A stretch of DNA of 64,000 nucleotides. Origin: Candidatus Oxydemutatoraceae bacterium. GTDB taxonomy: Bacteria > Pseudomonadota > Gammaproteobacteria > Poriferisulfidales > Oxydemutatoraceae. The translations under genes were made by a program, and so were the position numbers. The notes below the pieces were generated by a model. That model did not search any database. It was not told the DNA's origin and saw only the letters and a list, made by a program, of their open reading frames with translations. Shown one piece after another: positions 8,165 through 59,065 of the stretch. Each line of letters opens with the position of its first letter. Position 1 is the stretch's first letter. The stretch covers positions 1,900,769 through 1,964,768 of the forward strand of contig OZ244779.1 in the NCBI GenBank assembly GCA_965219575.1. The letters run 5' to 3'.

Positions 8165-8680
8165 CGCCGGTGGGTCAATCGGCATGACATTGTGCCAACC
8201 TGCACTATTTAATTCCCCTCCTGTGGAGGGGTGGCCTATGCATTTTGCAATGCATGCGTTTAGCAGTCATGCTGAGGTTCTGAACAAAGTCACGCCGATT
8301 GACCTACTGGAGCAATCGGCGGTTCTATTCAGCCTGACGGGGTGGTTGCTGCGTGGGGCTGTTGAAAAAGTAAGGGTGTCGCTCAAACCCAATCGCTGTG
8401 CGCCGTGAATATTTGCAAACCACCTGTAGGGGCGGACTTGCATGTCCGCCCGTAACGCATTGGTCGACACGATTTGCACATTCATCCATCCAATTGTATG
8501 GAAACCAAAACCAAATGGCACAAGCAGTTGGGTTTGTGCAGAACGGTACTTGAGGGCAAACATCATAATTGCCGATTGACCTACTGGCTCAATCGGCGAC
8601 TTTATATTGCCGATTGACCTACCGGCTCAATCGGCGGCTTTATATTGCCGATTGACCTACCGGCTCAATCGGCGACTCCA
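8165..8680. repeat. Composite intergenic repeat locus A: cassette-filled REP-like element, MITE-like arm and core, 3x38-bp hairpin tandem
   Basis: Shares blocks with 15003-15426, 17054-17186, 22712-22779, 23098-23392 and 58720-59065. Confidence 0.9.
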
Positions 8681-8687
8681 TTTGTCA

Positions 8688-10073
8688 TTACGATGCGATT
8701 CGTAAATACGGAGCCAGTTTGTGTCGCGCAACATAGAGTAGCAACAAGCTGGGAACGACCATCACCGTTGTCAAAATAAAAAACTGCATCCAATCGCCGT
8801 CTAAGAAATCAACGAGTTGTCCGCTGTGCGCCGATAGCGTAGTACGCGATAGGTTTCCCAGAGAAGCGAGTAGCGCATACTGGGTTGCCGTATAAACACG
8901 ACCGCACAGCTGCGATATAAAAGCGACAAAAGCAACCGTAGAAATTGCCGTGGTGAATTGATCGCCGATCACCGCCACTGCAAATAACCGTGTGTCCGGT
9001 CCTACTGCGGCGAGTAGCGCAAACAGTAGATTGGTGGTAGCCATAGCAATCCCGCAAATTATCAAACCTTTGAACAAACCGTAACGCACGCTTAAAATGC
9101 TCCCTATTATAGAAAATGCAATGATGCTACCCCAACCGACTAATTTAGAGTATGTAGCAATCTGGGTTTCGTCAAAGCCGACTTCGGAATAGAACAACAA
9201 AGACATGCGCCCCAAAAAGGCTTCTCCTATCTTAAACAGGAATATAAAACCCAGTATCAGTACCGATAAATGTAAACCGTTGCGACCGAAAAAGTCCGCC
9301 AAAGGTTTCCACACCAGAGAAATAAACCACGCCGATAGTGCCGCTAAGGCGGGGGACATATAATGTCGTTTGAGCCAATTCGAGTACAGTGCCGTACGGG
9401 TTTGTGTCTGTAACTGCAATCGCTTATTTGCCGATTTTTCCGGAATCAACATCAACCCGATATTGCTCAAAACAATGATTATCGTCATCAATAAATAACT
9501 CAGGTTCCACGGTTCTGCTACACCGATCTCTTTCAATGCCGCAACCCCGTAGAGTGCGACTGCACCACCGGCGTTATAACCGGTATACCATCCCGCCGTT
9601 GCCATCGCTGCGCCGGCCACAACCAAAGCCTGTTCGTTTTTGGCAACCAACTCGATGCGCAGTGCGTCTATCGCAACATCTTGGGTTGCGGCAGCGGCTG
9701 CAATCACCAAGGCGGTTGCTGCAACATACGCCAGCGAGGTCTGTGCCGAGATAAAATACATCGCAACGGCTGCCGAGAAAATAACAATTTGCATCGTCGC
9801 TATCCACGCTTTGCGCTGACCTATGCGTTTGGATAAAAACGGAATACGCATCGTATCGACCAAAGGTGCCCACAGAAAATTGATTGCGAATACCACAAAC
9901 ACATAACCGAACAAACCGATCGCACTGCGGCTCAAGCCTTCGTCTTTGAGCCATAAAGTCATCATCGAGCCGATCAGTACCCACGGGAAGCCGCTGATCG
10001 TTCCGATTAGGAGTATTTGCAGTACGCGAACATCCCTATACGGTCTTAAGTAATCGAGCCGATTTTTTGACAT
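8688..10073 (-). CDS. ampG: AmpG-family muropeptide MFS transporter
   Basis: SGFPW, FLWAPLVD, GQRKAW, ATQDVAIDALRIE, TATQYALLASL. Confidence 0.88.
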   Translation of the reverse strand: MSKNRLDYLRPYRDVRVLQILLIGTISGFPWVLIGSMMTLWLKDEGLSRSAIGLFGYVFVVFAINFLWAPLVDTMRIPFLSKRIGQRKAWIATMQIVIFSAAVAMYFISAQTSLAYVAATALVIAAAAATQDVAIDALRIELVAKNEQALVVAGAAMATAGWYTGYNAGGAVALYGVAALKEIGVAEPWNLSYLLMTIIIVLSNIGLMLIPEKSANKRLQLQTQTRTALYSNWLKRHYMSPALAALSAWFISLVWKPLADFFGRNGLHLSVLILGFIFLFKIGEAFLGRMSLLFYSEVGFDETQIATYSKLVGWGSIIAFSIIGSILSVRYGLFKGLIICGIAMATTNLLFALLAAVGPDTRLFAVAVIGDQFTTAISTVAFVAFISQLCGRVYTATQYALLASLGNLSRTTLSAHSGQLVDFLDGDWMQFFILTTVMVVPSLLLLYVARHKLAPYLRIAS

Positions 10074-10118
10074 ACCATCTTGCGGTCGAAGACTAATAAA
10101 AGATCATACCGATATATT

Positions 10119-10892
10119 TTAAGAAGTGCTTTTATAATCGATGATCAACGGTGCGTGGTCGGAAAAACGTTTGTCTTTATAGATGCGTGCCGCCTGCGGA
10201 TGATAGGGTGTGCGTGCAGAACTGAGTTGATAGTCGATGCGCCACCCTACATTGTTTTCCCATGCGCGCCCGCGATTAGACCACCAGGTATATTGATCGG
10301 GATCACGACACAGCACTCTGAATGTATCGCAGTAGCCGACATAGTCGAACAAGGTATCCAACCATTGTCTTTCTTCGGGTAGAAAACCCGAGTTTTTTTT
10401 GTTACCCCGCCAGTTTTTTATATCTATCTCCTTGTGTGCGATATTGATGTCGCCGCAAATAATATAATGTCTGCGCCGTCGCTTCAGGCGAATCAAGTGA
10501 TCCATAAAGCTGTCCATGAAACGATATTTTGCCTGTTGACGCGCCTCGCCGGAAGACCCCGACGGCGCATAAACCGAAACCACCGATAAATTACCGAATT
10601 GCCCTTCTAGGTAGCGTCCTTCGTTATCAAACTCGGAATCGCCGTATGCCTTGATAATTTTATCGGGTTTTCGTTTTGAATACAGTGCCACACCGCTATA
10701 ACCCTTTTTTTCGGCACTATGGTAGTGACAATGAAAACGGCTCGGGAAAAACTTCTTGTCGTCGAGTTGCTCGGGCTGTATGCGCAGTTCCTGTAAGCAT
10801 ACGAAATCGGCATTCTGGCGCGCGAGCCAGCGATAAAAACCCTTGCCGGCAGCCGATCGTATGCCGTTGACATTGAGCGTGATAATCCGCAT
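10119..10892 (-). CDS. xth: Exodeoxyribonuclease III
   Basis: NVNGIRS, CLQE, GYSGVA, GDINIAH, GWRIDY, SDHAP. Confidence 0.95.
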   Translation of the reverse strand: MRIITLNVNGIRSAAGKGFYRWLARQNADFVCLQELRIQPEQLDDKKFFPSRFHCHYHSAEKKGYSGVALYSKRKPDKIIKAYGDSEFDNEGRYLEGQFGNLSVVSVYAPSGSSGEARQQAKYRFMDSFMDHLIRLKRRRRHYIICGDINIAHKEIDIKNWRGNKKNSGFLPEERQWLDTLFDYVGYCDTFRVLCRDPDQYTWWSNRGRAWENNVGWRIDYQLSSARTPYHPQAARIYKDKRFSDHAPLIIDYKSTS

Positions 10893-13800
10893 TATCGGAT
10901 GCGCTTTCTAACATAGTTCTTTAGATCTTCGGTGACCATGTAAAGGCACGGTAGTACGGTAAGTATCAGCACCGTTGCAAAAATCAGCCCGAAACCCAGA
11001 CTGATTGCCATCGGCGATAGAAATTTGGTTTGACCGGTGGCGAAGAAAATCAGCGGCGACACACCCAAGAAGGTCGTAATCGTAGTCAGTATAATCGGAC
11101 GCGCTCGCCTGCACGATGCAGAGATCACCGCCTCCTCACAGCCATAGCCTTGCTCACGACGTTTTTTGACCTGATTCAACATAATCAGAGAGTCGTTGAC
11201 GATAATCCCGCTGAGTGCAACCAATCCGACTACGGACACAAACTGCAAATTATAACCGAGCAACGCATGTCCCATAATCACGCCGATGAAACCGAACGGC
11301 ACGGTGAGCAAAATAAGAACCGGTTCCCGCAAAGTACGAAATAGTACCAGCAGAATCAGAAATATCCCCATAACGGCAACTATACCGGCAACGCGGATAC
11401 CTCTGAACGAATCGTCGGCGCGTTTTTTCGCCCCTCTAAAGACCATATCGTATTCGGGAAGCTGTTCGTATAGCGGTCCGAATTGGCGTGCAACTTGGCC
11501 GTATACTTGAAACGGGGTCAGTTCCTCGCTGTCTACTTCACCGGTAATCGTAACGATGCGACGACCGTCGAGGCGGGTCAAGCGGTTAAAACTACGGTCT
11601 AGCTTGATCGTTGCCACTTCGTTGAGGTAGACCACTCTGCCGTCGGATAAAGTCAACGGTAACTGCATCAGACGATTGCTGTCGTTGCGTATCTCTTCGT
11701 CGAAGATAACTCGTACCGGATAGCGTTCGTCACCCCAGTTGACGTAGACCGCTTTGACACCCAAATAACCGGTGCGTAGTGCATCGGCGACTTGCTGTTG
11801 GGTAAGCCCCAGACGCTGTCCGCGTTCGTTCAACTGATAGCGCACTTCCAGTTTGCCTCTATCCATATCGTGCTGCATATCGTAGACACCGGCGATACCC
11901 CCCAGATAATCTATCATTTCTTCCGCACGATCCTCCAATCTCTCCAGGTCCGAACCTGCGATGCTAATTTCAATATCCGCCCCCGTCGGACCGGCTTCCG
12001 GGCGCACTATCGAAAAACGCTTGACACCGGACATACCCGATACCCGTTCGCGTATTAATACGATAATCTCCTCGACATCGCGCTTGCGAGAACCTTGCTC
12101 GTCAAACTTGAAACTCACCAGCGGCACGATGAAGCGTTCGACAAAAGTCTGTGGTTCTCGCTTGGTCAACGACACGACGAACTGACAGTAGTTGTCGCCG
12201 ACTTTGGATTGCCTGCTGCCACCGCGCCCACTCAATAACACGCCGATATTGCTCAGCATCGTGTTCAATTCGTATTCGTGTCCGTCGAACACCGTGTAGA
12301 TCTCTTTTTCGACGCGCGTCGACAACGCCTCGGTCTCCTCTATGCTGTAATTGCTGGGAGCTTCTATGTTGACGAAAAACTCGTCTACCTCCACATGACC
12401 GAATAGTTGAAAAGGAACGCGCGTTGTCAGAATAATGAGTGCCAATACCAATGTGCAGGTGGCCGTGACAAAAACAAAATATCTGTTGCGCAGACCCCAG
12501 CGTAGATAACGTTTATAGGGTGCCAGTAATTTTTCCCAGTCGACGAAACCTTGCTTTTCATCCTTTGACGGCAGCAGGCTCGATCCCACCGCAGCGGCAC
12601 CTACCGAAAGACTTTTGATACGAGTGCGCGCTTTCAAGAATAAATTCGCATGCGACGGCAACACAAAAAAGGCTTCCAACAAAGAGCCCAACAACGCGGC
12701 ACTGACTACCACCGGAATAACCTTGACGAACTCCCCCATCCTGCCGCCGATGGCGAGCAACGGTAAAAAGGCAATGACCGTAGTCAAGGTTGCGGCAAGA
12801 ACCGGTGCGACAATCTCGCGCGTCCCGCGCAAAGCCGCCTGTCTAACCGGCATACCCTCCTCTATATAGTGGTGGATATTTTCGGTCACAATAATGGCGT
12901 CGTCGACGATCATTCCCAGCGCAATCAAAAAAGCGAACAAAGACACCATGTTGATCGTGAAACCCAAATAATAAATGCTGATTACGGCAACCAAAAAGGA
13001 AATCGGAATGCCGAAAGCGGTAATCAACGCAACTCTAAAATTCAATAATAAATAAAGCGACGCAAGCAGTAACACCAAGCCGATCAACCCGGACGAGAAA
13101 ACGGTCTTCAATCGGGTGTCTATATAAACCGAGAAATCGTTGTGATAACCGACTTGTATCGCCGCCGGGAGCAGGTCGGGTATCTCTTCCTTCACCAACC
13201 TCCTGATCTCTGCTGCAATATCGTTGGTAGACGCTCTCACATCTTTGGTTACGACCAAGTTCAACGATTGCAATCCCGAAAATCGCCCTTGGGTTTGTAC
13301 GGTTTCAAGTGTCATTTCCACATCGGCAATATCGCCTATTCGTAATTGACCTCCGTCTCTATTGGTTCTAATAGCGATATCCTTAACCGCCTGCACATTA
13401 TCGGCGACACTCATTCCACGCAGTTGTATATCGCCCTCCAGGGCGGACAAAGAACCGCCCGGACGATCTCCCAGATTCGATGCCAACGCATTGCGAATTT
13501 CTTCCAGAGAAACCTCTTTGGCAGCGATTTCATAGGGGTCTACAACCACCCAAACTTCGGTATCGCGCTCGCCGGCGATATTTACCCCGCCGACTCCCTC
13601 GACTTTCTGTATCGCTTCCTTGACTATCTCGCTGGCGCGGATGAGCTCGGCTTCGCCGACATCACCGTAGACACTGACACTGATAACCGGAAAATTACTC
13701 TTACGACGAGAGATACGCGGCGTTTCTATGTCGTCGGGCAGATCTTCTATCGAGTCGACTTCAATTTCCACATTGCGCACTACCTCCTCTACATCGACAC

Positions 13801-14086: not shown

Positions 14087-14120
14087 GACAATATATATTC
14101 CTAGAGATTATAAATGAGAA

Positions 14121-15002: not shown

Positions 15003-15426
15003 ATTTCCCTCCTTGTAGGGGGTGGCATGTCTGCACCAGTACATTCCCCTCCTTTGGAGGGGTGGCCTATGCATTTTGCAATGCATGCGTTTAGCAGTCA
15101 TGTTGAGGTTCTGAACGAAGTCACGCCGATTGACCTACCGGAGCAATCGGCGGTTCTATTCAGCCTGACGGGGTGGTTGTCAAATATGGAAACCATTATC
15201 GTGTGGCGCAAGCGGTTACGGCTGTGCAGAACGATACTTAAGGGCAGACATCAGAATTGCCGATTGACCTACCGGCTCAATCGGCGGCTTTATCCTGCCC
15301 CTACAGGTGGGTTGGATAATTATGTGGCGCATAGCGGTTGCAATTGTGCAAACACAGTACTTTTTCAACAGCCCCGTCGTATCTGCACAGTGTAACAACG
15401 ATCGACCTACTGGCACACTCGGCGAC
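15003..15426. repeat. Composite intergenic repeat locus B, between apaG and apaH
   Basis: CCCCTCC..GGAGGGGTGGC element with 95-bp cassette; GGGCAGAC..CCCCTAC with hairpin insert; ACTTTTTCAACAGCCCC end near 15375. Confidence 0.9.
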
Positions 15427-16672: not shown

Positions 16673-17030
16673 GGGGGCGATCTTGGTTTCGACGGATATT
16701 ATGAAACTTGAGGTGCATGTCGAGCAGGTAAGAAACTCGTTAAACTTTTTGCGCAAAATTAGTTGCCAATCAACAAGACAACTACGCATTAGCGGCCTAA
16801 ACAACCGGCTATGCCTCCTCTCTTGGGGTGCTTGTAACTTAAGCAGAGGAGTCGATCAACAAGCTCGCGTGCGAATAGACTCGAAGTTCAAGCGTTAAAT
16901 CTTCATTCGAGGAAGCCGACTACTCAGCCTGTTTGCCGGCCGTAGACGGTGTGATTAAAGACGAACTAAACATGTAGTACCGAGAGCGGAATGTATGCGG
17001 ACGCGGGTTCAATTCCCGCCGCCTCCACCA
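16673..17030 (+). ncRNA. ssrA: tmRNA; tag peptide ANQQDNYALAA* at 16765-16800
   Basis: 5' GGGGGCG pairs with 3' CGCCTCC-ACCA (G3:U alanine determinant); T-arm GGTTCAATTCC; tag ends YALAA. Confidence 0.96.
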
Positions 17031-17053: not shown

Positions 17054-17186
17054 CTACCCCGTCAGGCTCAATAGAACCGCCGATTGAACCGGTAGGTCAA
17101 TCGGCGTGACTTTGTTCAGAACCTCATCATGACTTCTAGACGCATGCATTGTAAAATGCATAGGTCACCCCTCCGAAGGAGGGGAG
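17054..17186 (-). repeat. Composite repeat locus C: cassette-filled REP-like element, reverse orientation
   Basis: Reverse complement of the blocks at 8213-8346 and 15043-15177. Confidence 0.9.
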
Positions 17187-17324
17187 TTAACTACAGCCGA
17201 AAGAACTAAGTAATAGCTGATTTCTCAAAGCCGTACAGTAATCGTCACCTAAACTGTTGCCACTTAAATCCAACCCCTGCAGACTAGTTAGACTGCTAAA
17301 GATACCCGATGGGAGCGAAATCAA
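17187..17324 (-). other. Second LRR + C-terminal cap module, in frame directly after the stop of the 1777-aa gene
   Basis: Manual translation: LISLPSGIFSSLTSLQGLDLSGNSLGDDYCTALRNQLLLSSFGCS*. Confidence 0.8.
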
Positions 17325-20300
17325 TCACAAATCACAATTAACAACAACAAGCGGTAACTGGTTCTCCAGTGACGTACAGTAACTGGAACCTAAATTGTTG
17401 CGGCTCAAACCCACCCACTGCAGACTAGTTAAACCGCTAAAGATACCCTCGGGGAGCGTGCTTAGATCGTTGTCATGCAAATCCAACTCATCCAGCCTAG
17501 TTAAACCGCTAAAGATACCCTCGGGGAGCGTGCTTAGATCGTTGTTATACAAATCCAAATACCGCAGATTGGTTAAACCGCTAAAGATACCCTCTGGGAG
17601 CGTACTTAGCTCGTTGTCATACAAATCCAAATTCCGCAGACTAGTTAAACCGCTAAAGATACCCTCGGGGAGCGTACTTAGCTTGTTGTTATCCAACCTC
17701 AACTCATACAGCCTAGTTAAACCGCTAAAGATACCCTCGGGGAGCGTACTTAGCTTGTTGTTATCCAAACTCAACTCATACAGCCTAGTTAAACCGCTAA
17801 AGATACCCTCGGGGAGCGTACTTAGCTCGTTGCCATCCAAATCCAACCGCCCCAGACTAGTTAAACCGCTAAAGATACCCTCGGGGAGCGTGCTTATATC
17901 GTTTCCAGCCAAAATCAATTCATCCAGACTAGTTAAACCGCTAAAATCACCGGTCAATAAAGAAGATAATGAAGGAAATATCGACTCTTCATCAAGAAAC
18001 ATTCTTGTAATCGTAGCGAGGTCTTCCGCACTAATCTCGGCACAGTCGTCTTTGTCAACCCGTTGTTTGATTTCATCCCGCACCTGTGGTGTTCTATCGC
18101 ATACACCCAGTAGTTGCACAGCGATTGGTATTTCCTGATATTGCTGAATTACTCTACCGTATCGACTGTGTCCGGTATAGCGTAGCTTGTATTTGTCTTC
18201 TTCTATCTCTTGTGAGTCATCCACTCGGACGGTGTTTTCGTCAACTCTTATCAATCTAGGCGCACCTTCGGGTGGAACAACCGACCACATGCCCTGTTGG
18301 ATTTTGTTCCTCTCCCTACCAAACCATTGCCCCGGTGTAACCCGCACGGTATAGGTATTTTCGTCATTTCTACCTTGTCTCAGCTGCATTTCCGGTAGCG
18401 ATGTAATCGCACGACGCAAGTCAAATAATTCATACGATTCGGCGAAGGGGATAAGAATAGGTTCAAGATCCACATTTATGTTTGACGCAATTCCTAAACT
18501 TGAATCCAACCTCGTGAAGCGATAATCACTGCTGTCAATAGCTGCCTCTAAAGAAACACCACTCCCTCGCTCGAATATTCCCTCAACATCGCCATTGCCC
18601 TGCACATAAGGAATTAATTGAACATTCGTAAGAATGGAGGCGTAAAGCCCCAAGTCCAGTTGAGGAATCAGCGAAAACTTAACCATCATTCCGGCTGCTG
18701 TCTTAACCGTGATTTCGTATTCGCTGCTACTGTCGGCACTGCTGATAGGCACAAATCTACCGTTTTTGTATCTAAAACCTGCCCTTAATTTATAGGTTGA
18801 TTGAAATGTCTGGGCAATGTTCATCTCGGCCGATACTCCAGCCTCACCTCTTACCTTAAAGCCAAGCTCACCGTTAACCACAACCGGTATCGGTATTCCC
18901 AAAGTAGGTACAAATATGAGCCGATAGAAACTTTTCTTTTTACCTATTTCTTTTTCTCCATCTAGCGTATATCCGGATGCAGTAATTATTTCTAGTAGTA
19001 TGTCTAGATCTACATCGCCACCGACAACGACCTCGAGAGTTCCGTGTTTGGATGATTCTCGATCATAAGAGATTTTAATTTCAGGGTCAAAATCCAGATC
19101 CATATCGCCATGGAATCGCTGTTCGCCATCGGGTATTGAGGGTATCGGTATCGTCACCTCTCCTTGGAAGGAAAGATTCACAGGTTTATCGGAAGAAACA
19201 GCAATCGGCACCGTAATACTTCGCTCGCATGGATAGCCGAACAAAAGCTCCATTTTCCATTCATCGCGACTCTTATGCCGTTCGTAAGTTCGCCAGCGCA
19301 CACGATGTTCCACAATCCTTGCATCGGCACTTGCCGGTTTAGCTCTCACCGAAGCACCCTGCCTTCCCCGGCTCGTACCTCTTTGGGTGATGTCGTCTAT
19401 GGTCACCGAACACCGTTCGCTAAAGTTCTCGGGATATTCAACATAAACATCAAACGAGGCAACCTTGTTGACTTCGGCTGTCACATAAGGCGGATACCAA
19501 ACTTTTATGATGTCGCCGAATAGACCGAAAAAGCCTGTTGTGATAATGCGGATATTTTCATGTTCATAAGTCGCAGGAATATCCGGTTCGGACGGCTGTT
19601 GCTCCGAGCGTAGCCCTACCGCATCTTTGATGCTATCGAGTAGATCGTCGGTTTGGCTGAGCGGTTCGGACTGGCGTAGTCTAAAGCCGCTATCCGGCCA
19701 GTGCATCTCACGGATTTGCTCGCCGCCCTCGAAGATCGGTTGATACGGCCACACTTCGGACGGCGGAACCGACATCGGCGAGCGCAGTGCCGGGGAGAAC
19801 CGCCTGAGTTTGGTGTCCGCCGGCGGTGCCGGCTCGCCTCGTTGCTCGGCACGCACTTGTGCCGATTTCGCTGCCGCAATCGCCGCATCGTCGTCCACAT
19901 CCTCCAGTCTAACATTCATGTTCAAGCTGAGGTCTGAGAATACATCGGCCAGCGATGCCTGTTCGGTATAGAGTAGCATTTGGTCGCTACCGACGATTTC
20001 AATACGGGTAATCCTTCTCAGATAGCTGTCGTCTTGTCCCATCATGATCGCAACTTGTCCCACTTTCAGATCGTCGCGACGGTCTACGATAATCGTGCCG
20101 TCGGCGTTCAGTTCCGTATCAATCCGTATCAGCACCACCTCGTTTTGGGTGGACAATTTCGGCATCATCGACATCGTGCGTATCGATATCATCTCCGAGA
20201 GGCTACGGTTGCCTGCCTCGTCCAGTGCGGCAACATGCACATAGTAGGTCTGGCTGGTTTTGAGGTCATCGACATTGGCACTATAGATGCCCTGCACCAT

Positions 20301-22658
20301 CACCCGTTCGGTGTCTTTGCCGATCGTGGTTGCGGTGCTTTCGGAGACATGCACTTCGTAGACGATCTGCTCGGCAGCACTGCGGTCGTCGGTCGATGCC
20401 ATCCAATCCAGTGCAATGGCGGTCGTGGAAGAAGCATACGCAGACACGATGACCGGCGCAGTCGGGGGTGTTTCGTCGTTGCCGGTTGGTAGCGGCAACA
20501 TTATGCTCACCGCCGGGCTGACGGCACTCTCACCCTGCTCATTGACTGCACTCACCGCGTAGTAATAAAGTTGCCCTCGGATTAGCCCGGTGTGTACATA
20601 GCCGGTGCCGTAGATATCCGAGATGACTTGATCCGCTTGAGCGGCATTAATATCGGCAAAGCTGTTCCAATAAATCTTATACGAGGTTGCCCGATTTACC
20701 GGTCGCCAGCTGAGCGCAATGACATCGTCGCGTGCCTCAAGAATCAAATCGCGCGGCGGCGCAGGCGGCGAGGTTGCGGTGCTTCCGGTTCTGATATAGG
20801 TCGTTAGTTGCGTCGGGGTGCGCGCCGCTTGGGGAATCGCAGTCAGCGAACCGTCGGCATCACTGTAGACCAGCACCCGCTCCGTGTCTGCGTCTAAGAT
20901 CAGATGATACGGTGCTCGGACGGTGACCGGACTCAATAGAACGGTGCGGTTGCCGTTATCAAGGTCAACCTCGACTACAGCCCTCAAACCATTGTCCGCA
21001 ACATACGCCAAACCGGCATCGTCGTCCAGCACGACTGCAATCGGTTGATCGAACGAGGGGCCGGAACCTCTTTCCGGTATCACGCATATCGCTCGCACCA
21101 AACAGCCCGAAACGATGGCTCTCTCACCGGTCGTCGCATCCACCATGAGCAGTGCGTCCAGCTGGTCGTCTACGACGACGATACGCGTCGCAGAACTATT
21201 GATGCTCAACGCTTGCGGGTGTAGCATGACGGTGCCGTCTCCGATGTTGCGTTCCTCAACAGGACATAAATCGCTTGCCGTACATCCCGAAACTACACTG
21301 CGGTTGCCGTTCGTTAAATCTACTGCGATAAGTGCGCTCAAATAGGTATCGGTGATAATCAGGCGATTGCCGGCCTCGTCCAACACCGCATCGGTCGGTT
21401 GCGTTAACGGCACACCGCCGCCCACCCGGTATTGCCCCGACGGACAGCGGTTGACGATGTCGCACCCGGAAACCACACTGCGACTGCCGTCGGTCAAATC
21501 AACCGCAATCACCGCACGCAGAAAACTATCGACGATATACAACCTGTCGGTGCTGTCGCTATGCCCGACAAAGACCAAATCATGAATATCCACCTCGCCG
21601 ACCTGAGTGCCGGTATCCACCAGTTGTTGTCTCGAACCCGACGGGTTAACCGTCCATAGCGTGTGGTCGTCTCCCAATGCGTATAATGCCCCCGACTCGG
21701 ACAGCACCGTGTCTTGCACGCGCTCGGGCAGCGTAGGCAGTGTAGCACCTGAAACTATATTAGAAATACCGCCACTCAGCGCACCTTCTAAAAATACCCG
21801 CGCCCGTACTTTGATCGCCCCCGATCGCTTGCGGTATTGCACCTCGTAAGTGCCACGACACAGGTTGCCGTCGGCGCGTTGGTACGACCAGTACGCGCGC
21901 CCGTTGCCGTTATCGTTGTCGCTAAACTCGGCTCGCACGATCAGTGTGCGCGTGCCGTTAAATGCCAGGGCAGTACTGTATTGCCCGGTGAATATATAAG
22001 TGCTCGAGCTTATCGCTGCCGACAGCATCGCCGACAATCCGAAATCGTCGGTGAAACGATAACTTGCCGTGTTGCCTGCTTGGCTCATCTCAATTCGCTG
22101 TTCTCGCTCACGCACCGCAGCACACGACCCCGATACCACGGTCGATGTTGTGATAGACAGCCGGTAATTCCCGTTTATATCACGGCTCGGCATGTCGCTT
22201 AGATAATCGACATTGAAAGCCTCCGTACAGAGTGTTTGCGTATCGTCGCAATATCTAAAAGCAACCGTTCCGACAAGACCGATGCCTGCCGTCCCTCGTG
22301 CATTGATCATAGCAGAAGTTCTGATACCTAAAGCGGGTATGAAAACCTGTCTTTGCAACGGCAAAAATTCGTTTGCCAGACCATAGGGCGTTTCATCTAT
22401 GCGCCTGCTGATACCATTCTCCGTTATGTGGAGCGTCAGCGTCGTCGCTTGCGTGGCTTGCTCTCGGCTAGTCGCAATAAACGATAGTGTATAATTCCCT
22501 CCCCAGCGAAGTTCGGAAGGTGTAATCGACGGCGTGCCGAATACCAAAGCGGGTTGTGCAGCACCGATAACCGGCAAGCAACACAAGACAGATAAAGCGA
22601 TTGCTTGCCGAATGACCCGAGAGGTAAATAAACCCCACATTATTATATTTTTAAGCAT
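17325..22658 (-). CDS. Large secreted mosaic protein: signal peptide, NHL/SGL-like beta-propeller, two fibronectin type III domains, unassigned beta-rich region, C-terminal leucine-rich repeats
   Basis: Signal-like ..PVIGAA-QP; repeated VDLxxGxRxVVSGC blades; PPAPPRDL..LSW..YYYAVSAVNEQGES and PPTAP..YYVHVAALDEAGNRS FN3 motifs; 24-aa LSTLPEGIFSGLTxL repeats. Confidence 0.85.
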   Translation of the reverse strand: MLKNIIMWGLFTSRVIRQAIALSVLCCLPVIGAAQPALVFGTPSITPSELRWGGNYTLSFIATSREQATQATTLTLHITENGISRRIDETPYGLANEFLPLQRQVFIPALGIRTSAMINARGTAGIGLVGTVAFRYCDDTQTLCTEAFNVDYLSDMPSRDINGNYRLSITTSTVVSGSCAAVREREQRIEMSQAGNTASYRFTDDFGLSAMLSAAISSSTYIFTGQYSTALAFNGTRTLIVRAEFSDNDNGNGRAYWSYQRADGNLCRGTYEVQYRKRSGAIKVRARVFLEGALSGGISNIVSGATLPTLPERVQDTVLSESGALYALGDDHTLWTVNPSGSRQQLVDTGTQVGEVDIHDLVFVGHSDSTDRLYIVDSFLRAVIAVDLTDGSRSVVSGCDIVNRCPSGQYRVGGGVPLTQPTDAVLDEAGNRLIITDTYLSALIAVDLTNGNRSVVSGCTASDLCPVEERNIGDGTVMLHPQALSINSSATRIVVVDDQLDALLMVDATTGERAIVSGCLVRAICVIPERGSGPSFDQPIAVVLDDDAGLAYVADNGLRAVVEVDLDNGNRTVLLSPVTVRAPYHLILDADTERVLVYSDADGSLTAIPQAARTPTQLTTYIRTGSTATSPPAPPRDLILEARDDVIALSWRPVNRATSYKIYWNSFADINAAQADQVISDIYGTGYVHTGLIRGQLYYYAVSAVNEQGESAVSPAVSIMLPLPTGNDETPPTAPVIVSAYASSTTAIALDWMASTDDRSAAEQIVYEVHVSESTATTIGKDTERVMVQGIYSANVDDLKTSQTYYVHVAALDEAGNRSLSEMISIRTMSMMPKLSTQNEVVLIRIDTELNADGTIIVDRRDDLKVGQVAIMMGQDDSYLRRITRIEIVGSDQMLLYTEQASLADVFSDLSLNMNVRLEDVDDDAAIAAAKSAQVRAEQRGEPAPPADTKLRRFSPALRSPMSVPPSEVWPYQPIFEGGEQIREMHWPDSGFRLRQSEPLSQTDDLLDSIKDAVGLRSEQQPSEPDIPATYEHENIRIITTGFFGLFGDIIKVWYPPYVTAEVNKVASFDVYVEYPENFSERCSVTIDDITQRGTSRGRQGASVRAKPASADARIVEHRVRWRTYERHKSRDEWKMELLFGYPCERSITVPIAVSSDKPVNLSFQGEVTIPIPSIPDGEQRFHGDMDLDFDPEIKISYDRESSKHGTLEVVVGGDVDLDILLEIITASGYTLDGEKEIGKKKSFYRLIFVPTLGIPIPVVVNGELGFKVRGEAGVSAEMNIAQTFQSTYKLRAGFRYKNGRFVPISSADSSSEYEITVKTAAGMMVKFSLIPQLDLGLYASILTNVQLIPYVQGNGDVEGIFERGSGVSLEAAIDSSDYRFTRLDSSLGIASNINVDLEPILIPFAESYELFDLRRAITSLPEMQLRQGRNDENTYTVRVTPGQWFGRERNKIQQGMWSVVPPEGAPRLIRVDENTVRVDDSQEIEEDKYKLRYTGHSRYGRVIQQYQEIPIAVQLLGVCDRTPQVRDEIKQRVDKDDCAEISAEDLATITRMFLDEESIFPSLSSLLTGDFSGLTSLDELILAGNDISTLPEGIFSGLTSLGRLDLDGNELSTLPEGIFSGLTRLYELSLDNNKLSTLPEGIFSGLTRLYELRLDNNKLSTLPEGIFSGLTSLRNLDLYDNELSTLPEGIFSGLTNLRYLDLYNNDLSTLPEGIFSGLTRLDELDLHDNDLSTLPEGIFSGLTSLQWVGLSRNNLGSSYCTSLENQLPLVVVNCDL
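17390..17960 (-). repeat. 72-bp LRR-coding tandem repeat, 8 units
   Basis: GTTAAACCGCTAAAGATACCCTCGGGGAGCGT recurs every 72 bp on the + strand. Confidence 0.95.
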
Positions 22659-22711
22659 GATGTTGAGGAGTGTTGGAATAAATTATATAGCAACCGAGCC
22701 TATCCGCAAAT

Positions 22712-22779
22712 TTACGATTTAACCTATTGGTTCAAACGGTGGTTCTCACGCCTGCCACCCCTCTACAGGAGAGGAATAA
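22712..22779 (-). repeat. Degenerate composite repeat locus D1
   Basis: CGCCTGCCACCCCTCTACAGGAGAGGAAT plus a degenerate copy of the 27-bp hairpin. Confidence 0.7.
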
Positions 22780-22875
22780 TACTTTTTCTATAGCCTCTAA
22801 TCTTCATACCAAAAGTGCCTAGTGCCTTGCAATAGGATATAATATGATTTTGTTAATATGAAGTAGTGAATAAAG

Positions 22876-23079
22876 ATGTCCGAGATAGCTATGTACAATG
22901 TATTGACAAAACTAGGTGCGACCCCTGAGGAAGCCGAGAAAGCCGTAGCCGATGTTGCTAGTACGAAAAATGTCGCAACTAAAACAGACATAGTGGAACT
23001 AAAAACAGAACTGAAGTATTTACGATGGCTAATTGTCGTCGTAGTCGGTATTGCAGTAGGACTTATCAAATATCTGTAA
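22876..23079 (+). CDS. Small coiled-coil membrane protein, DUF1640/CCDC90-like
   Basis: LTKLGATPEEAE..VATKTDI..LKTELKYLRW followed by a C-terminal TM helix; family call from remembered motif only. Confidence 0.7.
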   Translation: MSEIAMYNVLTKLGATPEEAEKAVADVASTKNVATKTDIVELKTELKYLRWLIVVVVGIAVGLIKYL

Positions 23080-23097
23080 TTTAATTTAAGCCATATG

Positions 23098-23392
23098 GGC
23101 CGTCCCGTCAGACGTAGCCTGCCACCTCTCCACAGGAGGGGAATGTACCAATACGATACTCGTGCAGATACTTTTGGGGCTGTTGAAAAAGTATTGGCAC
23201 TGCATAAATCCAACCGCTTGCGCCAACAAATAATGGTTTCCATAATATTAATGGGTAAACGCGTTAATCGTTCAAACATGATACGGTTTCGGGCGGACAT
23301 GTTAGTCCGCCCCTACGGTTGGTTTACAAATATTCATGGCGCAAGCGGTTGTGACCACCCCGTCAGGCTGCGCCTGCCACCCCTCCACAGGC
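23098..23392. repeat. Composite repeat locus D2: two empty CCCCTCC-type elements, a MITE-like end and an empty GTAG hairpin
   Basis: CCCGTCAGGCTGCGCCTGCCACCCCTCCACAGG, GGGGCTGTTGAAAAAGT, GGGCGGACATGTTAGTCCGCCCCTAC. Confidence 0.85.
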
Positions 23393-53548: not shown

Positions 53549-53550
53549 AT

Positions 53551-53982: not shown

Positions 53983-53993
53983 ACTCTATGCCG

Positions 53994-54530
53994 CTATATC
54001 TTCTCAACCTGATTAAAGGTGATCTCCACCGGAGTGGAACGACCGAAAATCTGCACACTCACCTGCAGTCTATTTTTCTCGTAATCCACCTCTTCGACAA
54101 CACCGTTAAAATCGTTAAAAGGTCCTCCGGTCACACGTATCACTTCGCCAACCTCGTACAATATCTTGGGTTTAGGCTTGCTCGCATCTTCTTTTATACG
54201 GCTGATGATGCTTTCAACTTCCTTTTGCGGCACCGGTGTGGGCTTGCTGGGTGAACTACCGATAAAACCCACAACTCTAGGAACGCCGTTGACCAGGTGC
54301 CAAGTGCGCTCGTCCATAACCATCTCTATTAACACATAGCCGGGAAAAAATTTACGCTCCACCTGATGCTTTTTTCCTGCCCGCATCTCAACCACAGTCT
54401 CTTGAGGTATCATGATTTCACCGAAACGATCTTCCAGCTTGTTTCGCTGCACTCTTTCTTCCAAAGATTTCTTCACCGAACCCTCGTATCCGGAATAGGT
54501 TTGCACTGCGTACCACTCCATTCTATTCAT
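53994..54530 (-). CDS. nusG: Transcription factor NusG
   Basis: WYAVQTYSGYE, FFPGYV, GPFNDF, IFGRSTPVE. Confidence 0.97.
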   Translation of the reverse strand: MNRMEWYAVQTYSGYEGSVKKSLEERVQRNKLEDRFGEIMIPQETVVEMRAGKKHQVERKFFPGYVLIEMVMDERTWHLVNGVPRVVGFIGSSPSKPTPVPQKEVESIISRIKEDASKPKPKILYEVGEVIRVTGGPFNDFNGVVEEVDYEKNRLQVSVQIFGRSTPVEITFNQVEKI

Positions 54531-54886
54531 TTAATAATGATTTGCATGAACCAAGCTAAAAACAAATCCAGTGCCCACAAAAAAAGTGCCACTATTAAAA
54601 CCATGACAAAAATCAGCAAGGTCGTCTGAAGGGTCTCGGCTTTCGTCGGCCATACCGTCTTTTGCAATTCAACCTGTGCACCCTGCAAAAAGATCGCAGT
54701 ACTTTTACCCGGTTTGGTCAAAAAGAATAATACGGCAGCAACCACGACCATCGCAAGTATAGCAAGCACGCGATACAGCAATATCTCGTCCGATAAATAA
54801 TAAAATAGAGCAAGCCCCGACGCTAAGGACAGAAACACACCTGCCAATTTAATGCGATCCATCAATAAATCATTGGTATTTGCCAT
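54527..54886 (-). CDS. secE: Preprotein translocase SecE
   Basis: Three TMs, ELQKTVWPT; ATG at 54886 because the longer track ORF overlaps tRNA-Trp. Confidence 0.92.
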   Translation of the reverse strand: MANTNDLLMDRIKLAGVFLSLASGLALFYYLSDEILLYRVLAILAMVVVAAVLFFLTKPGKSTAIFLQGAQVELQKTVWPTKAETLQTTLLIFVMVLIVALFLWALDLFLAWFMQIIIK

Positions 54887-54922
54887 CGGATAACCTCGCT
54901 TAATTAGGCCGCCAAAGTCCGG

Positions 54923-54995
<73 letters not shown>

Positions 54996-55052
54996 ATCAT
55001 GACCCCATAAACTATACATCATAGAAACGCTGCAATTCGTTCAGCTAACAGT

Positions 55053-56246
55053 TTATTCTATGATTTTAGCTACTACGCCTGCGCCTACCGTGCGACCTCC
55101 TTCCCTGATCGCAAAACGCAGACCTTCTTCCATCGCAATCGGTCCTATTAAACTCACCGTCATCTTCACATTGTCCCCCGGCATCACCATCTCTACACCC
55201 GACTCCAACTCTACCGCACCGGTCACATCGGTCGTCCTAAAATAAAACTGCGGTCGGTAGCCTTTGAAAAACGGCGTGTGTCGACCGCCTTCCTCTTTCG
55301 ACAATATATACACCTCGGCCTCGAACTTCTTGTGCGGGGTGATCGAACCCGGCTTGCACAATACCTGACCTCGCTCTACCTCCTCTCGCTTCGTCCCCCG
55401 CAACAACACCCCGACATTGTCTCCGGCACGACCTTCGTCCAACAACTTCCTGAACATCTCTACTCCCGTACAGGTCGTCTTGTTCGTCTCTCTTATCCCG
55501 ACAATCTCTATCTCGTCTCCTACCTTCACGATGCCTCGCTCTATACGACCAGTCACCACCGTCCCCCGTCCCGATATCGAAAATACATCTTCCACCGGCA
55601 TCAGATAGTCTCCGTCTATCGCTCGCTCCGGCTCCGGGATATACTTGTCCATCTCGGTTATCAACTGCTCTACCGACGACACCCCCATCTCCGAACCGTC
55701 TCCTTCCAACGCCTTCAGTGCCGAACCCGCCACAATCGGTATGTCGTCTCCCGGAAACTCGTAGTTCGACAATAACTCGCGCACTTCCATCTCTACCAAC
55801 TCCATCAACTCCTTGTCGTCCACCATGTCGGCTTTGTTCAAATATACGACGATATGCGGCACACCCACTTGCCGTGCCAACAAAATATGCTCTCGCGTCT
55901 GGGGCATCGGACCGTCCGCCGCACTCACCACCAATATCGCCCCGTCCATCTGTGCCGCGCCGGTTATCATGTTCTTGATATAGTCGGCGTGTCCCGGACA
56001 ATCTACATGCGCATAGTGTCTCGCTTGCGACTCATACTCCACATGCGCCGTCGCGATCGTGATCCCTCGCTCTCGTTCCTCCGGCGCATTGTCTATCTGC
56101 TCATACGAGCGATACTCGCCGGCACCCTGATTATCCGACATCACCTTGGTCATCGCCGCCGTCAGTGTCGTCTTGCCGTGATCCACATGTCCTATGGTTC
56201 CTACATTGACATGCGGTTTCGTTCTTTCAAATTTTTCTTTAGACAT
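55053..56246 (-). CDS. tuf: Elongation factor Tu
   Basis: [26 protein letters not shown]. Confidence 0.99.
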
Positions 56247-56272
56247 AATTTATTCCTAAATTGGGTTATTGA

Positions 56273-56347
<75 letters not shown>

Positions 56348-56375
56348 GAGCAAACAGGGGTCGCAACATATCCGG

Positions 56376-56446
<71 letters not shown>

Positions 56447-56513
56447 CATTGTAACTACAACTAAAGATCCCAAAACACTGCTCCCTATCGTCGCTTCCGC
56501 TGCCGGCCATCAC

Positions 56514-56595
56514 TGGAGGGGGTAGGATTTGAACCTACGAAGGCATAGCCAGCAGATTTACAGTCTGCCCCCGTTGACCGCTTGGGTACCCCTCC
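56514..56595 (-). tRNA. tRNA-Tyr(GTA)
   Basis: GGAGGGGTACCCAAGCGG..CTGTAAA..long variable arm..GGTTCAAATCC..CCCCTCC-A; followed by GTG. Confidence 0.95.
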
Positions 56596-56614
56596 ACAAT
56601 CTAGTGGATTGCGG

Positions 56615-56643
56615 ATTATCCCAAAAAATCAAGCGATTTGCAA
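56615..56643 (-). promoter_or_regulatory. Sigma70 promoter of the tRNA-tuf operon
   Basis: TTGCAA-N17-GATAAT on the - strand followed by a CCGC discriminator. Confidence 0.65.
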
Positions 56644-56709
56644 GTATAACATATTTTTGGCATACATGCTAGAATATTCTACCTTATAAATTAAAGGAGG
56701 GTTATAACG

Positions 56710-57684
56710 ATGAACGATACAAAACCACTTAAAGTAGCGATTACCGGCGCAGCCGGCAATATCGGTTATGCGCTTGCTTTTAGAATTGCAAGCGGCGCAA
56801 TGCTGGGTTCGCACCCCGTTGTGCTACATCTGATTGAAATCAGACAAGCCGAGAAACAACTCGACGGCGTGCTGATGGAATTAGAGGACTGCGCTTTTCC
56901 TTTGCTCGATGCCTGCATCGGCACGAGCGACACAGAAGCAGGTATGGAAGATGTGGATATCGCTATCTTGGTCGGATCCAAACCTCGGAGGGCGGGCATG
57001 GAGCGCAAAGACTTACTGAAAGATAACGGCGAAATTTTCAAACGCCAAGGGCAGATAATAAATGCAGTGGCATCCAGAGAAGTCAAAGTGCTTGTCGTCG
57101 GCAATCCGGCGAATACCAACGCATTGATTGCATATCGAAACGCACCCGATCTAAACCCCGACCAATTTAGTTGCATGACCCGCTTGGACCACAACCGAGC
57201 ATTGACGATGATTGCCAAGAAATATAACAAAGCCGTCGGGCAGATAAAGAAAATGATCATTTGGGGGAATCACTCGGCAACACAATTTCCCGATCCACTG
57301 CACTGCGAAATAGACGCAAAAGCCCTACAGCCGGATCACGACTGGGTGGAACAAGAATTTGTTCCTGCGGTGCAGCAACGTGGTGCAGAAGTCATAGAGG
57401 CACGCGGCGCATCGTCGGCAGGCTCTGCGGCAAACGCAATCGTCGATCATCTACGCGATTGGACCTTTGCTACCGCCGAAAACGATTGGGTCAGCATGGG
57501 GGTCGTCTCCGACGGTCATTACGGCATAGAACCCGGCATCGTCTATTCCTTCCCGGTTATTACGAAGAACGGACAATGGCGTATCGTGCCCGACCTGACG
57601 GTCAACGACTTTGAGACTAAAATGATGTTAGAGACCGAAAAAGAGTTGCACGAAGAACGTTCGGCTGTTGAACACTTACTCTAA
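56710..57684 (+). CDS. mdh: Malate dehydrogenase
   Basis: [38 protein letters not shown]. Confidence 0.96.
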
Positions 57685-57732
57685 GTTACTTGAGTTTCTA
57701 GGGGATTTGTTATATTGTTGCGATTTACTCCA

Positions 57733-57759
57733 AGGGGTGGAGCCGGTAGCCCCACCCCT
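57733..57759. terminator. Hairpin between convergent mdh and porin genes
   Basis: AGGGGTGG-N11-CCACCCCT. Confidence 0.55.
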
Positions 57760-57766
57760 GTATACA

Positions 57767-58597
57767 TTACCAGCTACTCGATACCGAAAAAACAACTGCC
57801 TCGCAAGCGTCGTCGCATCCGTCTAAATCGGACGCATCTTGCCACGATAAATCAAATGTAAATTTATCGATAGACTTGGATACCCCGACCGCATAATATG
57901 TGTAATCAAAACCGTCGGGCGAGGTTTTATCGCCGTCCACATCTTGATAACCGACTTGAACATAAGGATCTACCATATCGGGAATACTGAAGCCGAGTCC
58001 ACCATGTACCCAAACCCCGGTATCATCTTCGCCATAAAAATCCGGCGAATAGGCGATGCCTATGTCCGCAGACGGTTGATAGTCGGTATCCCAAGTGTAG
58101 CTCAACGAACCATAAAACTCTAAAAAGTCATAGTCATTACCTGCATCCTCATTCTGGTCGGGATAAATATAGTATAAAGCACCGACATCCCAGCCTAAGC
58201 CGTTTTGGAACTCACCGGATATACCGCCGTAGACATCAATTTCTAATGACCCAAAATCCGGATTGGTATCAATAACCGCAGTTTGACCAGCAGGAACCGG
58301 CATTGGTATTGGTACTTCGGTTTCGGCTCCTGATTGGAACTCCAGACTGGAAGCCCATACGCCCAAATAGAAGCCCGATTCGTGCGAATAATCAAATCCG
58401 CCCTGCAATGCCGGATCCTCGTTGGTTTGAGAAATCCCACGGTAGACATAGTCGGATGTGAGTGTCACATTCGCGCTGAAACTGTGGGGTGAATGTCCAT
58501 CCGCAAAAGCGGAAGGAACATAGGTAGTAAATAATAGGAATAATAAGCCTCCGATAGAAGCCTTATAAGCCCTACTGAAAATATATAGATATTTCAT
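57767..58597 (-). CDS. TorF-family putative outer-membrane porin
   Basis: SDYVYRGISQT, PALQGGFDY, GFYLGVWAS, EIDVYGG, terminal Trp. Confidence 0.85.
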   Translation of the reverse strand: MKYLYIFSRAYKASIGGLLFLLFTTYVPSAFADGHSPHSFSANVTLTSDYVYRGISQTNEDPALQGGFDYSHESGFYLGVWASSLEFQSGAETEVPIPMPVPAGQTAVIDTNPDFGSLEIDVYGGISGEFQNGLGWDVGALYYIYPDQNEDAGNDYDFLEFYGSLSYTWDTDYQPSADIGIAYSPDFYGEDDTGVWVHGGLGFSIPDMVDPYVQVGYQDVDGDKTSPDGFDYTYYAVGVSKSIDKFTFDLSWQDASDLDGCDDACEAVVFSVSSSW

Positions 58598-58635
58598 TTT
58601 AATAACCTCACTATGAGTTGATCTTAATAACGAAT

Positions 58636-58654
58636 GATAATTAGAATAATTATC
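58636..58654. promoter_or_regulatory. Fur-box-like palindrome upstream of the porin gene
   Basis: GATAATTAGAATAATTATC, 16/19 match to GATAATGATAATCATTATC. Confidence 0.65.
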
Positions 58655-58719
58655 GTTATGATTATTATATTAAATCACTGCTGATAAGTCAATGAATGGC
58701 TTATAAAAATCACAAATGC

Positions 58720-59065
58720 GGGGGCGCAAGCGATTGAGATCGCGTGCAAGTACGACACCAGTTCATTCCTCCCCTGTGGAGAGAAATGGGGCTGTTGAAA
58801 AAGTCCGGACATCGCAAAAATCTGACCGCTGTGCGCCACATAATTATCCAAACCACCTGTGGGGGCAGACCTGTCTGCCCTTAAGTGCCGTTCTGCACAG
58901 CCGTAATCGCTTGCACCATTTGGTTTTAGTGTCCATAAATCGGGTGGATGAATGTATAAATCGTGCCGACCAACGCGTTACGGGCAGAACAGAGCCGCCG
59001 ATTGAGCTAGTAGGTCAATCGGCAATTTAATTTTAGTCCGCCCCTACACGCTCAATCGGCGGTTG
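58720..59065. repeat. Composite repeat locus F: MITE-like arm, core and hairpin-filled GTAG element
   Basis: GGGGCTGTTGAAAAAGT; core is the reverse complement of the locus A core; GCCGATTGAGCTAGTAGGTCAATCGGC. Confidence 0.88.

Follow-up and report, generated by a model that had tools for sequence, protein, structure and literature searches.

Palindromic repeats nested within one another, in empty and filled forms, between the genes of an uncultured sponge symbiont

How does one short hairpin come to stand inside two unrelated repeats of the same genome, when both repeats also occur without it? The question is raised by a 64,000-nucleotide (nt) stretch of Candidatus Oxydemutatoraceae bacterium (hereafter the window; contig OZ244779.1, positions 1,900,769 to 1,964,768), in which a 27-bp hairpin, GCCGATTGA-N9-TCAATCGGC, lies within copies of two host repeats. 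Host 2 is a GTAG-tagged hairpin of the repetitive extragenic palindromic (REP) type, host 1 is a second repeat, and the two-hairpin cassette found in host 1 is called E. The genome that holds the window (G000) is a single contig of 2,369,097 bp with 47% G+C, and four sister genomes of the same genus (G001 to G004) were used for comparison. Coordinates marked G000 are genome positions; all others count from the first letter of the window unless a sister locus is named. The explanation that we favor, and consider fairly probable, is that non-coding palindromic repeats specific to this genus have become stacked within one another through insertion at hairpin apices, passive spread with their hosts and exchange of alleles.

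Allowing up to two mismatches, the hairpin has eight matches in the window, compared to 0.01 expected from dinucleotide-preserving shuffles, and none of 100 shuffles reached eight. Five of the eight are the copies described in an earlier reading of the same DNA (the original prediction), whose quoted sequences and coordinates are all present as it gave them. The other three form a head-to-tail array (8571-8673) that was missing from its list, as were a truncated hairpin at 8166-8183 and half of an outer hairpin at 59052-59060. That the nested repeat system lies far beyond chance is confirmed; the interpretation offered at the time, a tiny non-autonomous element that targets the hairpin loops of other repeats and then spreads with its host, is partly supported.

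Oriented by the asymmetric loop CCTAC-Y-GG-Y, the hairpin has 246 copies across G000 with up to five substitutions, split almost evenly between the plus (122) and the minus strand (124). All but eight (238) lie outside open reading frames (ORFs) of at least 200 codons, which make up 83% of the genome. Counts of an exact-arm pattern are 174 for G000, 173 for G001, 105 for G003 and 153 for G004, with none in G002 and none in any of 36 genomes from other genera of the family and order; the hairpin is thus found in four of the five genomes of the genus, from four species. Tabulating the flanks of the 246 copies shows that 83 have a REP arm on either side, 28 are flanked by the two arms of host 1, 24 belong to tandem arrays, 58 stand in other contexts and 53 are partial or chimeric. 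The 58 are mostly solo copies of the form GTYAC-hairpin-GGTTCTATT, and solo copies stand at gene ends. This solo, E-type context is the dominant one in the sister species (33 of 60, 21 of 58 and 25 of 59 sampled copies), and the linkers of their REP-loop hairpins differ from those of G000.

In the tandem arrays the hairpin plus GGCTTTATATT recurs every 38 bp, which is the size of the unit inside REP loops; the REP cassette can evidently expand into such arrays. The array in the window (8556-8673, plus strand) begins with a degenerate REP 5' arm (GGGCAAAC), followed by units at 8571-8597, 8609-8635 and 8647-8673, and lacks both the REP 3' arm and the rest of the transposon. Since the hairpin occurs in two different cassettes, alone, in tandem arrays and even as a host for REPs, the idea that the 27-mer is itself the mobile unit did not survive.

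Folded as single-stranded DNA, the hairpin has a free energy of -9.7 kcal/mol (z = -6.4). In its stem, double changes that are compensatory number 10 in G000 and 18 in sister loci, compared to a single unpaired double in each, counted as copies rather than events. The loop is as conserved as the stem (seven of nine positions at 94% or more) and contains GTAG, which is therefore inside the loop and not 5' of the stem. The truncated copy at 8166-8183 (plus strand), in which the loop and 3' arm remain and the 5' arm is deleted, overlaps the stop codon of the ORF at 7629-8162 in an ATAAACC / GTGAC-type context; its G003 ortholog is an intact hairpin.

A different hairpin (ACCACTTG...CAAGTGGT, with CAGTAG in its loop) fills the same ATAGAACC / GTGAC context at two sister loci, L083 of G003 (~2880-2910 of the locus) and L085 of G004 (~2830-2860), and the G000 copy at 967885 has a stem, GCCACTTGA/TCAAGTGGC, that is intermediate between this and the 27-bp hairpin. 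In five of the 77 copies with a GGTTCTAT flank (window 8160-8162 and four other G000 sites), an ORF of at least 100 codons has its stop codon in the TAG/TAA of ATAGAACC. The possibility that the hairpin is a remnant of an insertion sequence (IS) end was rejected. In G000, the inspected end stretches of IS3-like, rve/HTH, IS1595 and TnpB-type elements contain no GCCGATTGA. In G004 and G001, elements of the IS1182 type (L107, L108 and L111) contain, ~60 nt from the right end, AAAACCTCCGATTGAATCAGT, which matches AGAACC of ATAGAACC plus the hairpin's 5' arm and loop start at 19 of 21 positions; a full hairpin was not found in the IS1182-type element, allowing up to 12 of 38 substitutions.

Host 1 has the consensus ATTCCCCTCC-NNN-GGAGGGGTGGC-AGGCGNA-GCCTGACGGGGTGG. 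G000 contains 110 empty copies and 29 with a 94-98-nt insert, exactly 96 nt long in 28 of the 29. With host 2 present as 300 empty and 83 filled copies, the original claim that empty and filled forms coexist holds for both repeats. Three filled copies of host 1 lie in the window. The first (8215-8345, plus strand) reads CCCCTCC-TGT-GGAGGGG, a strong hairpin, then TGGC, a 94-nt E at 8236-8329 with the 27-bp hairpin at 8294-8320, and then CAGCCTGACGGGGTGG. The second (15046-15176, plus strand) has E at 15067-15160 and the hairpin at 15125-15151. The third (17054-17184, minus strand, hairpin at 17079-17105) adjoins the transfer-messenger RNA (tmRNA) gene at 16673-17030 (plus strand; RF00023, 191 bits), a landmark. 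Two empty copies are found on the minus strand, a degenerate variant at 23100-23141 and another at 23354-23391 with the loop AGGCGCA and a truncated strong hairpin.

In the filled form E (94-96 nt, two hairpins) replaces AGGCG and reads CTATGCATTTTGCAATGCAT...GTCAC-hairpin-GGTTCTATT. The strong hairpin CCCCTCC-NNN-GGAGGGG, just upstream of the cassette site, is intact. The site itself can hardly be called a hairpin loop, since the stem there (CAGGC-GCA-GCCTG) is small and folds no better than shuffled sequence (z = -0.21). In a related element, E2, the GGTTCTATT end is the same but joins host 1 on its other strand, at the mirror-image position (eight copies). Filled and empty copies do not differ in their spectrum of host-1 subtypes, as marked by the NNN in the strong hairpin (chi-square p = 0.68), which fits repeated gain or loss better than a single founder.

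Host 2 has the consensus GTAG followed by GGGCRGAC-N6-GTCYGCCC. Among its 300 empty copies in G000, 298 have an 8-bp stem with a 6-nt loop, 293 have the GTAG, and 283 lie outside ORFs of at least 200 codons. The two arms covary, with 201 copies of the form GGGCGGAC/GTCCGCCC (CCGCCC-type) and 72 of the form GGGCAGAC/GTCTGCCC (CTGCCC-type). Empty copies in the window stand at 8426-8451 (plus strand; GTAG and GGGCGGAC-TTGCAT-GTCCGCCC, then GTAAC) and 23291-23316 (GTAG on the minus strand). A further REP, at 58859-58880 on the plus strand, reads GTGG-GGGCAGAC-CT-GTCTGCCC, its loop reduced to 2 nt.

Read in the orientation of the hairpin, a filled REP consists of the 5' arm (8 nt), the loop (6 nt), RTT or TAAATT, the hairpin, 9 nt and the 3' arm (6 nt), so that a cassette of ~39-42 bp stands at the loop/3'-arm junction, with the 6-nt loop retained and 2 nt of the 3' arm missing. 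The geometry is constant, with GTAG at the left in 34 copies, CTAC at the right in 35, both in 5 and neither in 9. Two filled copies lie in the window. At 15242-15304 (plus strand) the order is GGGCAGAC-ATCAGA-ATT-hairpin(15259-15285)-GGCTTTATC-CTGCCC-CTAC, for which the computed single-strand fold has an outer 6-bp stem around the inner hairpin. At 58982-59047 the minus strand reads GTAG-GGGCGGAC-TAAAAT-TAAATT-hairpin-GGCTCTGTT-CTGCCC, with the hairpin at 58997-59023. As originally reported, cassettes with the hairpin are thus seated at apical regions in two repeat families that are unrelated, and they do share the 27-bp hairpin; apart from it and GGYTYTRTW they have nothing in common, and must be regarded as different elements (94-96 nt and ~39-42 nt). 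The loops retained in filled REPs (TAACAT, TTACAT, TTATAT, TACAAT) are also found among empty copies, and this variety suggests more than one filling event.

Host 2 is not a free-standing REP. Within 150 nt of 246 of the 300 empty copies is the 16-mer GGGRCTGTTGAAAAAG, which has 494 copies in G000, compared to 2 for a reversed control, and forms 164 inward-facing pairs 100-500 bp apart; host 2 is therefore the central hairpin of a miniature transposon. These units are 200-300 bp long, with a median of 209 bp for those with one hairpin, 258 bp for those with two inverted empty REPs and 295 bp for those with one filled REP, 37 bp above the two-empty units. In the window, the terminal inverted repeat is found at 8355-8370 (plus strand; GGGGCTGTTGAAAAAG, matching the IS end in G004), at 15360-15375 (minus strand), closing the unit whose right half contains the filled REP at 15242-15304, at 23176-23191 beside the empty REP on the minus strand, and at 58788-58803 (plus strand), followed by an arm and the REP at 58859-58880.

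The 16-mer is the terminal repeat of an IS1182-type element (Pfam DDE_Tnp_1_6), with nine matches in G001, 12 in G004 and two partial ones in G003; its transposase gene was not found in G000. Its ends in G004 and G001 read GGGACTGTTGAAAAAGTA, and the G000 repeat ends in GGGGCTGTTGAAAAAGTA, identical at 17 of 18 bases. The IS1182-type elements of G004 and G001 themselves lie in the loop of a variant REP-like hairpin, GGGAGGGC-TAACAT-GCCCTCCC, with ACAT duplicated on both sides. One complete filled unit (G000 1333520-1333736) has ACTT at both flanks and is absent from G003, a single clean case. The carrier of host 2 is, by its terminal repeats, target duplication and presence or absence between species, a unit of the MITE type (miniature transposable element with inverted repeats) derived from an IS1182-type IS.

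Nesting also runs in the opposite direction. In composites of the form GCCGATTGA-GCTT-GTAG-REP-GATAGG-TCAATCGGC, a REP lies in the loop of the 27-bp hairpin, beside the loop's own GTAGG. G000 contains about seven complete composites and about six halves, and others are found in G003 and G004. Some of the nested REPs are filled themselves, so that a hairpin encloses a REP that encloses a hairpin. The half composite in the window is the hairpin 3' arm (TCAATCGGC) at 59052-59060 (plus strand), after CTAC-ACGC, which encloses the filled REP at 58982-59047. At G000 1985723, a REP stands within the strong hairpin of host 1, and the REP at the counterpart site in G003 carries an IS110-family element.

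IS110-family elements provide a direct comparison. All seven in G000 (~1320 bp; at 884371, 1307300, 1376132, 1385431, 1429726, 2071822 and 2328815) are inserted exactly between the 6-nt loop and the 3' arm of a REP, without duplication, which is the same junction that the TAAATT-type cassette occupies. The IS110 copies of G001 use this junction too, in a hairpin variant whose stem differs. Along with the IS1182-type insertions, they indicate that at least two elements of the genus that encode enzymes do land at hairpin apices.

The comparison with sister species covered the syntenic region of the window in G001 to G004 and a 400-kb sample of G003, the closest relative (~91% identical in genes), with module maps read by eye. 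Of 35 colinear gaps between G000 and G003 in the 400 kb, 28 contain repeats, and nearly all of these differ in content. Seven host-1 sites are shared: four are empty in both genomes, three are filled in G000 and empty in G003, and none is the reverse. The three are 15046-15176 (site 1), where G003 has AGGCGT in place of E; 17054-17184 (site 2), where G003 has a single empty host 1; and G000 ~1752400. Filled REPs differ between species only as whole transposon units, in several instances, which argues that they spread with their host. This part of the original prediction is borne out, since most filled REPs lie in such units and are gained or lost with them. Short-read contigs from four public runs end at the repeats, and none bridges an intergenic region, making them uninformative on strain alleles; the empty/filled "joints" seen in them have sides of only 20-38 letters that come from other genomic copies.

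In the explanation that we favor, hairpin apices would receive insertions in rare, position-specific nesting events, composites would multiply passively with the host element through transposition of whole miniature transposons, and paralogous copies would exchange alleles and so give rise to chimeras. The filled state would have arisen by insertion, with a Y1 transposase similar to REP-associated tyrosine transposases (RAYTs) and the IS110 recombinases as candidate enzymes.

A number of results weigh against this explanation. The host-1 alleles are replacements (AGGCG or E) with no clean insertion, and no intermediate "footprint" form of 0-2 nt was found among the G000 copies. At sites 1 and 2, which were the ones checked in the outgroups G001 and G004, both of these genomes lack host 1 and so give no polarity to the change, insertion or loss; gene conversion between paralogs explains the host-1 alleles equally well. 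The consensus of E is the same in G000 and G003, with an identity of 0.939 between the species and 0.940 and 0.935 within them, which leaves the events undated and does not separate ongoing activity from selection or conversion. The CTGCCC 3' arm is present in 80 of the 83 filled REPs, against 201 CCGCCC-type and 72 CTGCCC-type empties; an arm that travels with the cassette points to few founders or to recombination. The best full-length partner of a filled unit has a median identity of 88.7% and a maximum of 94.6% (n = 31), compared to a median of 94.2% and values up to 100% for unfilled units (n = 103), so filled lineages appear old in G000. Most filled REPs look like descendants of a few old founder lineages.

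Also on this side, the cassettes have no target duplication at host-1 or REP junctions, where a few bases are replaced or lost as originally noted (E takes the place of AGGCG in host 1; host 2 keeps its loop and is short of 2 nt in the 3' arm), and they have no terminal repeats beyond the 9-bp stem of the hairpin. The cassettes themselves are thus not MITEs in the strict sense. Their ends (TAAATT...GGCTCTGTT), compared by eye, are not shared with those of IS110 (GATGCC...ATATACCT), and a sequence comparison found them unlike IS1182-type ends as well. Hairpins show no replication-strand bias in G000 (130 vs. 116, p = 0.41), and so give no support to a single-strand mechanism on the lagging strand; the bias of REPs is weak (173 vs. 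127, for copies that are not independent). Lastly, G003 has 105 hairpins and 50 REPs yet no RAYT-like gene.

Several of these points would be expected if the cassettes were immobile, an alternative that is possible but which we regard as doubtful. The composites would then be diverged subfamilies of the host repeats whose centers are swapped by homologous or microhomology exchange and gene conversion, and cassettes would be seen in loops only because changes to the stem destroy elements, which then do not propagate. Identical junctions at the replacements in 28 of the 29 filled host-1 copies fit this well, as do the linkage of the CTGCCC arm to the cassette and the age of filled units. Around one fifth of hairpins join non-cognate flanks (e.g., L1-R2, four copies; L3-R1, two copies; half-hairpins joined to REPs at the shared GTAGG), and some REPs with GTAG at the left have the loop orientation typical of CTAC at the right (ATCAAA, 11 copies). 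However, the arms offer only 8-30 bp of homology, and the same mirrored geometry recurs on either strand, at the REP palindrome as well as at the host-1 site (R2 and R5 joints). Varied retained loops next to an identical cassette boundary, with no homology there, are likewise difficult to reconcile with exchange, and two known insertion sequences demonstrably target these loops.

At the other extreme is a stronger form of apex insertion, which we think unlikely: a 39-96-bp module would integrate position-specifically at hairpin apices, REPs would integrate reciprocally at its GTAG, and an enzyme that reads hairpins (the RAYT-like Y1 protein or IS110 acting in trans) would drive the "Russian-doll" nesting. 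This version depends on an enzyme. The RAYT-like candidate is a 188-aa ORF in two 1.1-kb segments of G000 that are 99.5% identical (genes at G000 66437-67003 and 1094898-1095461), plus one partial copy, and the segment is bounded by the miniature transposon's terminal repeats. It was found by reading the ORFs of multi-copy segments; a whole-genome search with Pfam Y1_Tnp gave no match, and the ORF itself scores 24.1 bits with that model (cut-off 23). With NCBIfam REP_Tyr_transpos it scores 49.1 bits (E = 5e-13), below the cut-off of 80, and a sequence search against solved structures found no match. Copies number two intact and one partial in G000, five in G004, one and a fragment in G001, and none in G003 or G002; the pattern of a single-copy, vertically inherited RAYT is not found in this genus. 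Inverted REPs flank the gene in both G000 duplicates and partly at one of two G004 loci, with none within 700 bp at the G001 locus.

That such an enzyme moves the cassettes in trans, whether the RAYT-like Y1 (HUH) protein on folded single strands with the loop GTAG as its tag or an IS110-type RNA-guided recombinase, is improbable as a specific proposal. In its favor, the ORF matches both Y1_Tnp and REP_Tyr_transpos, and its copy number tracks the REP count (5/479, 2/293, 1/106, 0/50 and 0/0, which for five related genomes is no real test). The GTAG lies in a conserved hairpin loop, and REPs join hairpin halves at GTAGG. As for IS110, all seven copies hold the position of the TAAATT-type cassette without duplication, and small modules moved into REPs by an IS110 transposase have been described (PMC12288879). 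Against it, the RAYTs described by Corneloup et al. (2021; PMC8266576) use a GTAG 5' of the stem as guide and cut outside the REP, at CT or CA, so a GTAG inside the hairpin loop is not the known RAYT substrate. Consistent REP flanking is limited to the two duplicate G000 copies, G003 does without the gene, the cassette ends differ from IS110 ends, and the hairpins show no strand bias. The enzymes named in the original prediction were thus found in part (the RAYT-like ORF, seven IS110 elements in G000, IS1182-type elements in the sisters), but none of them can be assigned to the cassettes.

Maintenance of the hairpins mainly for host use, as transcript-end stabilizers, terminators or protein-binding sites placed by selection, is very unlikely. 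In its favor are the conservation of loop and stem, the compensatory changes that preserve pairing, the single consensus of E in G000 and G003, and the location of some copies at gene ends (the TAG of ATAGAACC being a stop codon in five of 77). Against it, copies are found in either orientation, in tandem or lodged within other repeats, most syntenic gaps between sisters are unlike in their intergenic content, no T-run follows the hairpin, and Rfam has no match for it.

Insertion at apices with passive spread and allele exchange is the explanation that we retain. An Rfam search of the window identified the tmRNA and four tRNAs only, with no family for the repeats, so the comparison with Rfam suggested by the original prediction gave nothing.

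Two larger features of the genome were also noticed. Between the filled host 1 at site 2, next to the tmRNA gene, and the empty copy at 23354-23391 is a 6.2-kb segment (17185-23353) that G003 is without, the empty copy marking its far boundary. It contains one gene for a 1777-aa protein (17325-22658, minus strand) with C-terminal leucine-rich repeats like those of secreted effector families. In its place are a single empty host 1 in G003 and ~35 bp in G001 and G004, and pieces homologous to the gene are found elsewhere in the latter two genomes; this looks like relocation via repeats. At G000 ~1,232,000-1,332,000, one G003 region matches five to six parallel places at 75-86% identity, which implies a probable large block of diverged tandem duplications.

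Bacterial MITEs derive from insertion sequences, and nested or mosaic intergenic repeats include the NIMEs of Neisseria and the Correia elements. The carrier of host 2 resembles IS-derived MITEs in its size of 200-300 bp, its IS-matching ends, its presence or absence between species and one clean 4-bp duplication; unlike them, the hairpin cassettes have no terminal repeats or duplications, and G000 has no IS1182-type transposase gene. Little is understood so far of how REP-type repeats spread. REPs are cut in vitro by RAYT enzymes, but to our knowledge full RAYT transposition has not been shown, nor has hairpin-apex nesting been demonstrated for any RAYT.

Host 2 is similar to the REP, BIME and REPIN elements described with RAYTs (Di Nocera et al., 2013, PMC3733652; Corneloup et al., 2021) in that its perfect palindrome is short and GC-rich, with GTAG immediately on the 5' side. 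It likewise has hundreds of extragenic copies in both orientations with two covarying stem variants, in a genome with a putative Y1/HUH gene of the REP-associated type. It differs in that most copies lie inside transposon units bounded by terminal repeats, and in that the RAYT-like gene is multi-copy, absent in one of the species that have REPs and below the NCBI family cut-off; the 27-bp hairpin differs in having GTAG in its loop rather than 5' of its stem. GTAG-tagged REPs embedded in other palindromes are described in Di Nocera et al. (2013), including hundreds of unoccupied target palindromes beside occupied ones in T. roseum. There as here, a small palindromic repeat sits at the center of another palindrome; unlike the cases described in that source, nesting here is reciprocal, reaches three levels, involves at least three repeat families and two IS families, and is accompanied by syntenic alleles between species. 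REPs are also known targets of insertion sequences (Tobes and Pareja, 2006, PMC1525189). REP-targeting IS110 elements such as IS621, ISPpu9 and ISPpu10 (PMC1525189, PMC12288879) use a fixed REP position without duplication, as in seven of seven cases here, with the TAAATT-type cassette at the same junction. In Pseudomonas putida, the small non-coding module ssr9 of ISPpu9 spreads into REPs with an IS110 transposase, as described in PMC12288879; the cassettes here, at 39-96 bp, differ from it in having no similarity to IS110 ends. A literature search by motif strings, which did not extend to supplements, returned only unrelated primer-type matches and no printed description of these repeats; among four listed papers that mention the genus, none deals with its repeats.

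The system is a variant of known REP and MITE nesting, and a dense, well-resolved example of it in an uncultured sponge symbiont. One warning follows, namely that a hairpin taken for a "REP" may belong to the interior of a DDE-type miniature transposon. With alleles defined as empty or filled, nesting in both directions around one shared GTAG and a REP junction also used by IS110, the genus makes the spread of REPs testable, and its four species with different sets of candidate enzymes offer concrete substrates for the question of integration at hairpin apices. Even if the cassettes are immobile, they would still show clearly how mosaic intergenic repeats evolve in a small-genome symbiont; if enzyme-driven "Russian-doll" nesting is true, it would be a new mode of REP dissemination.

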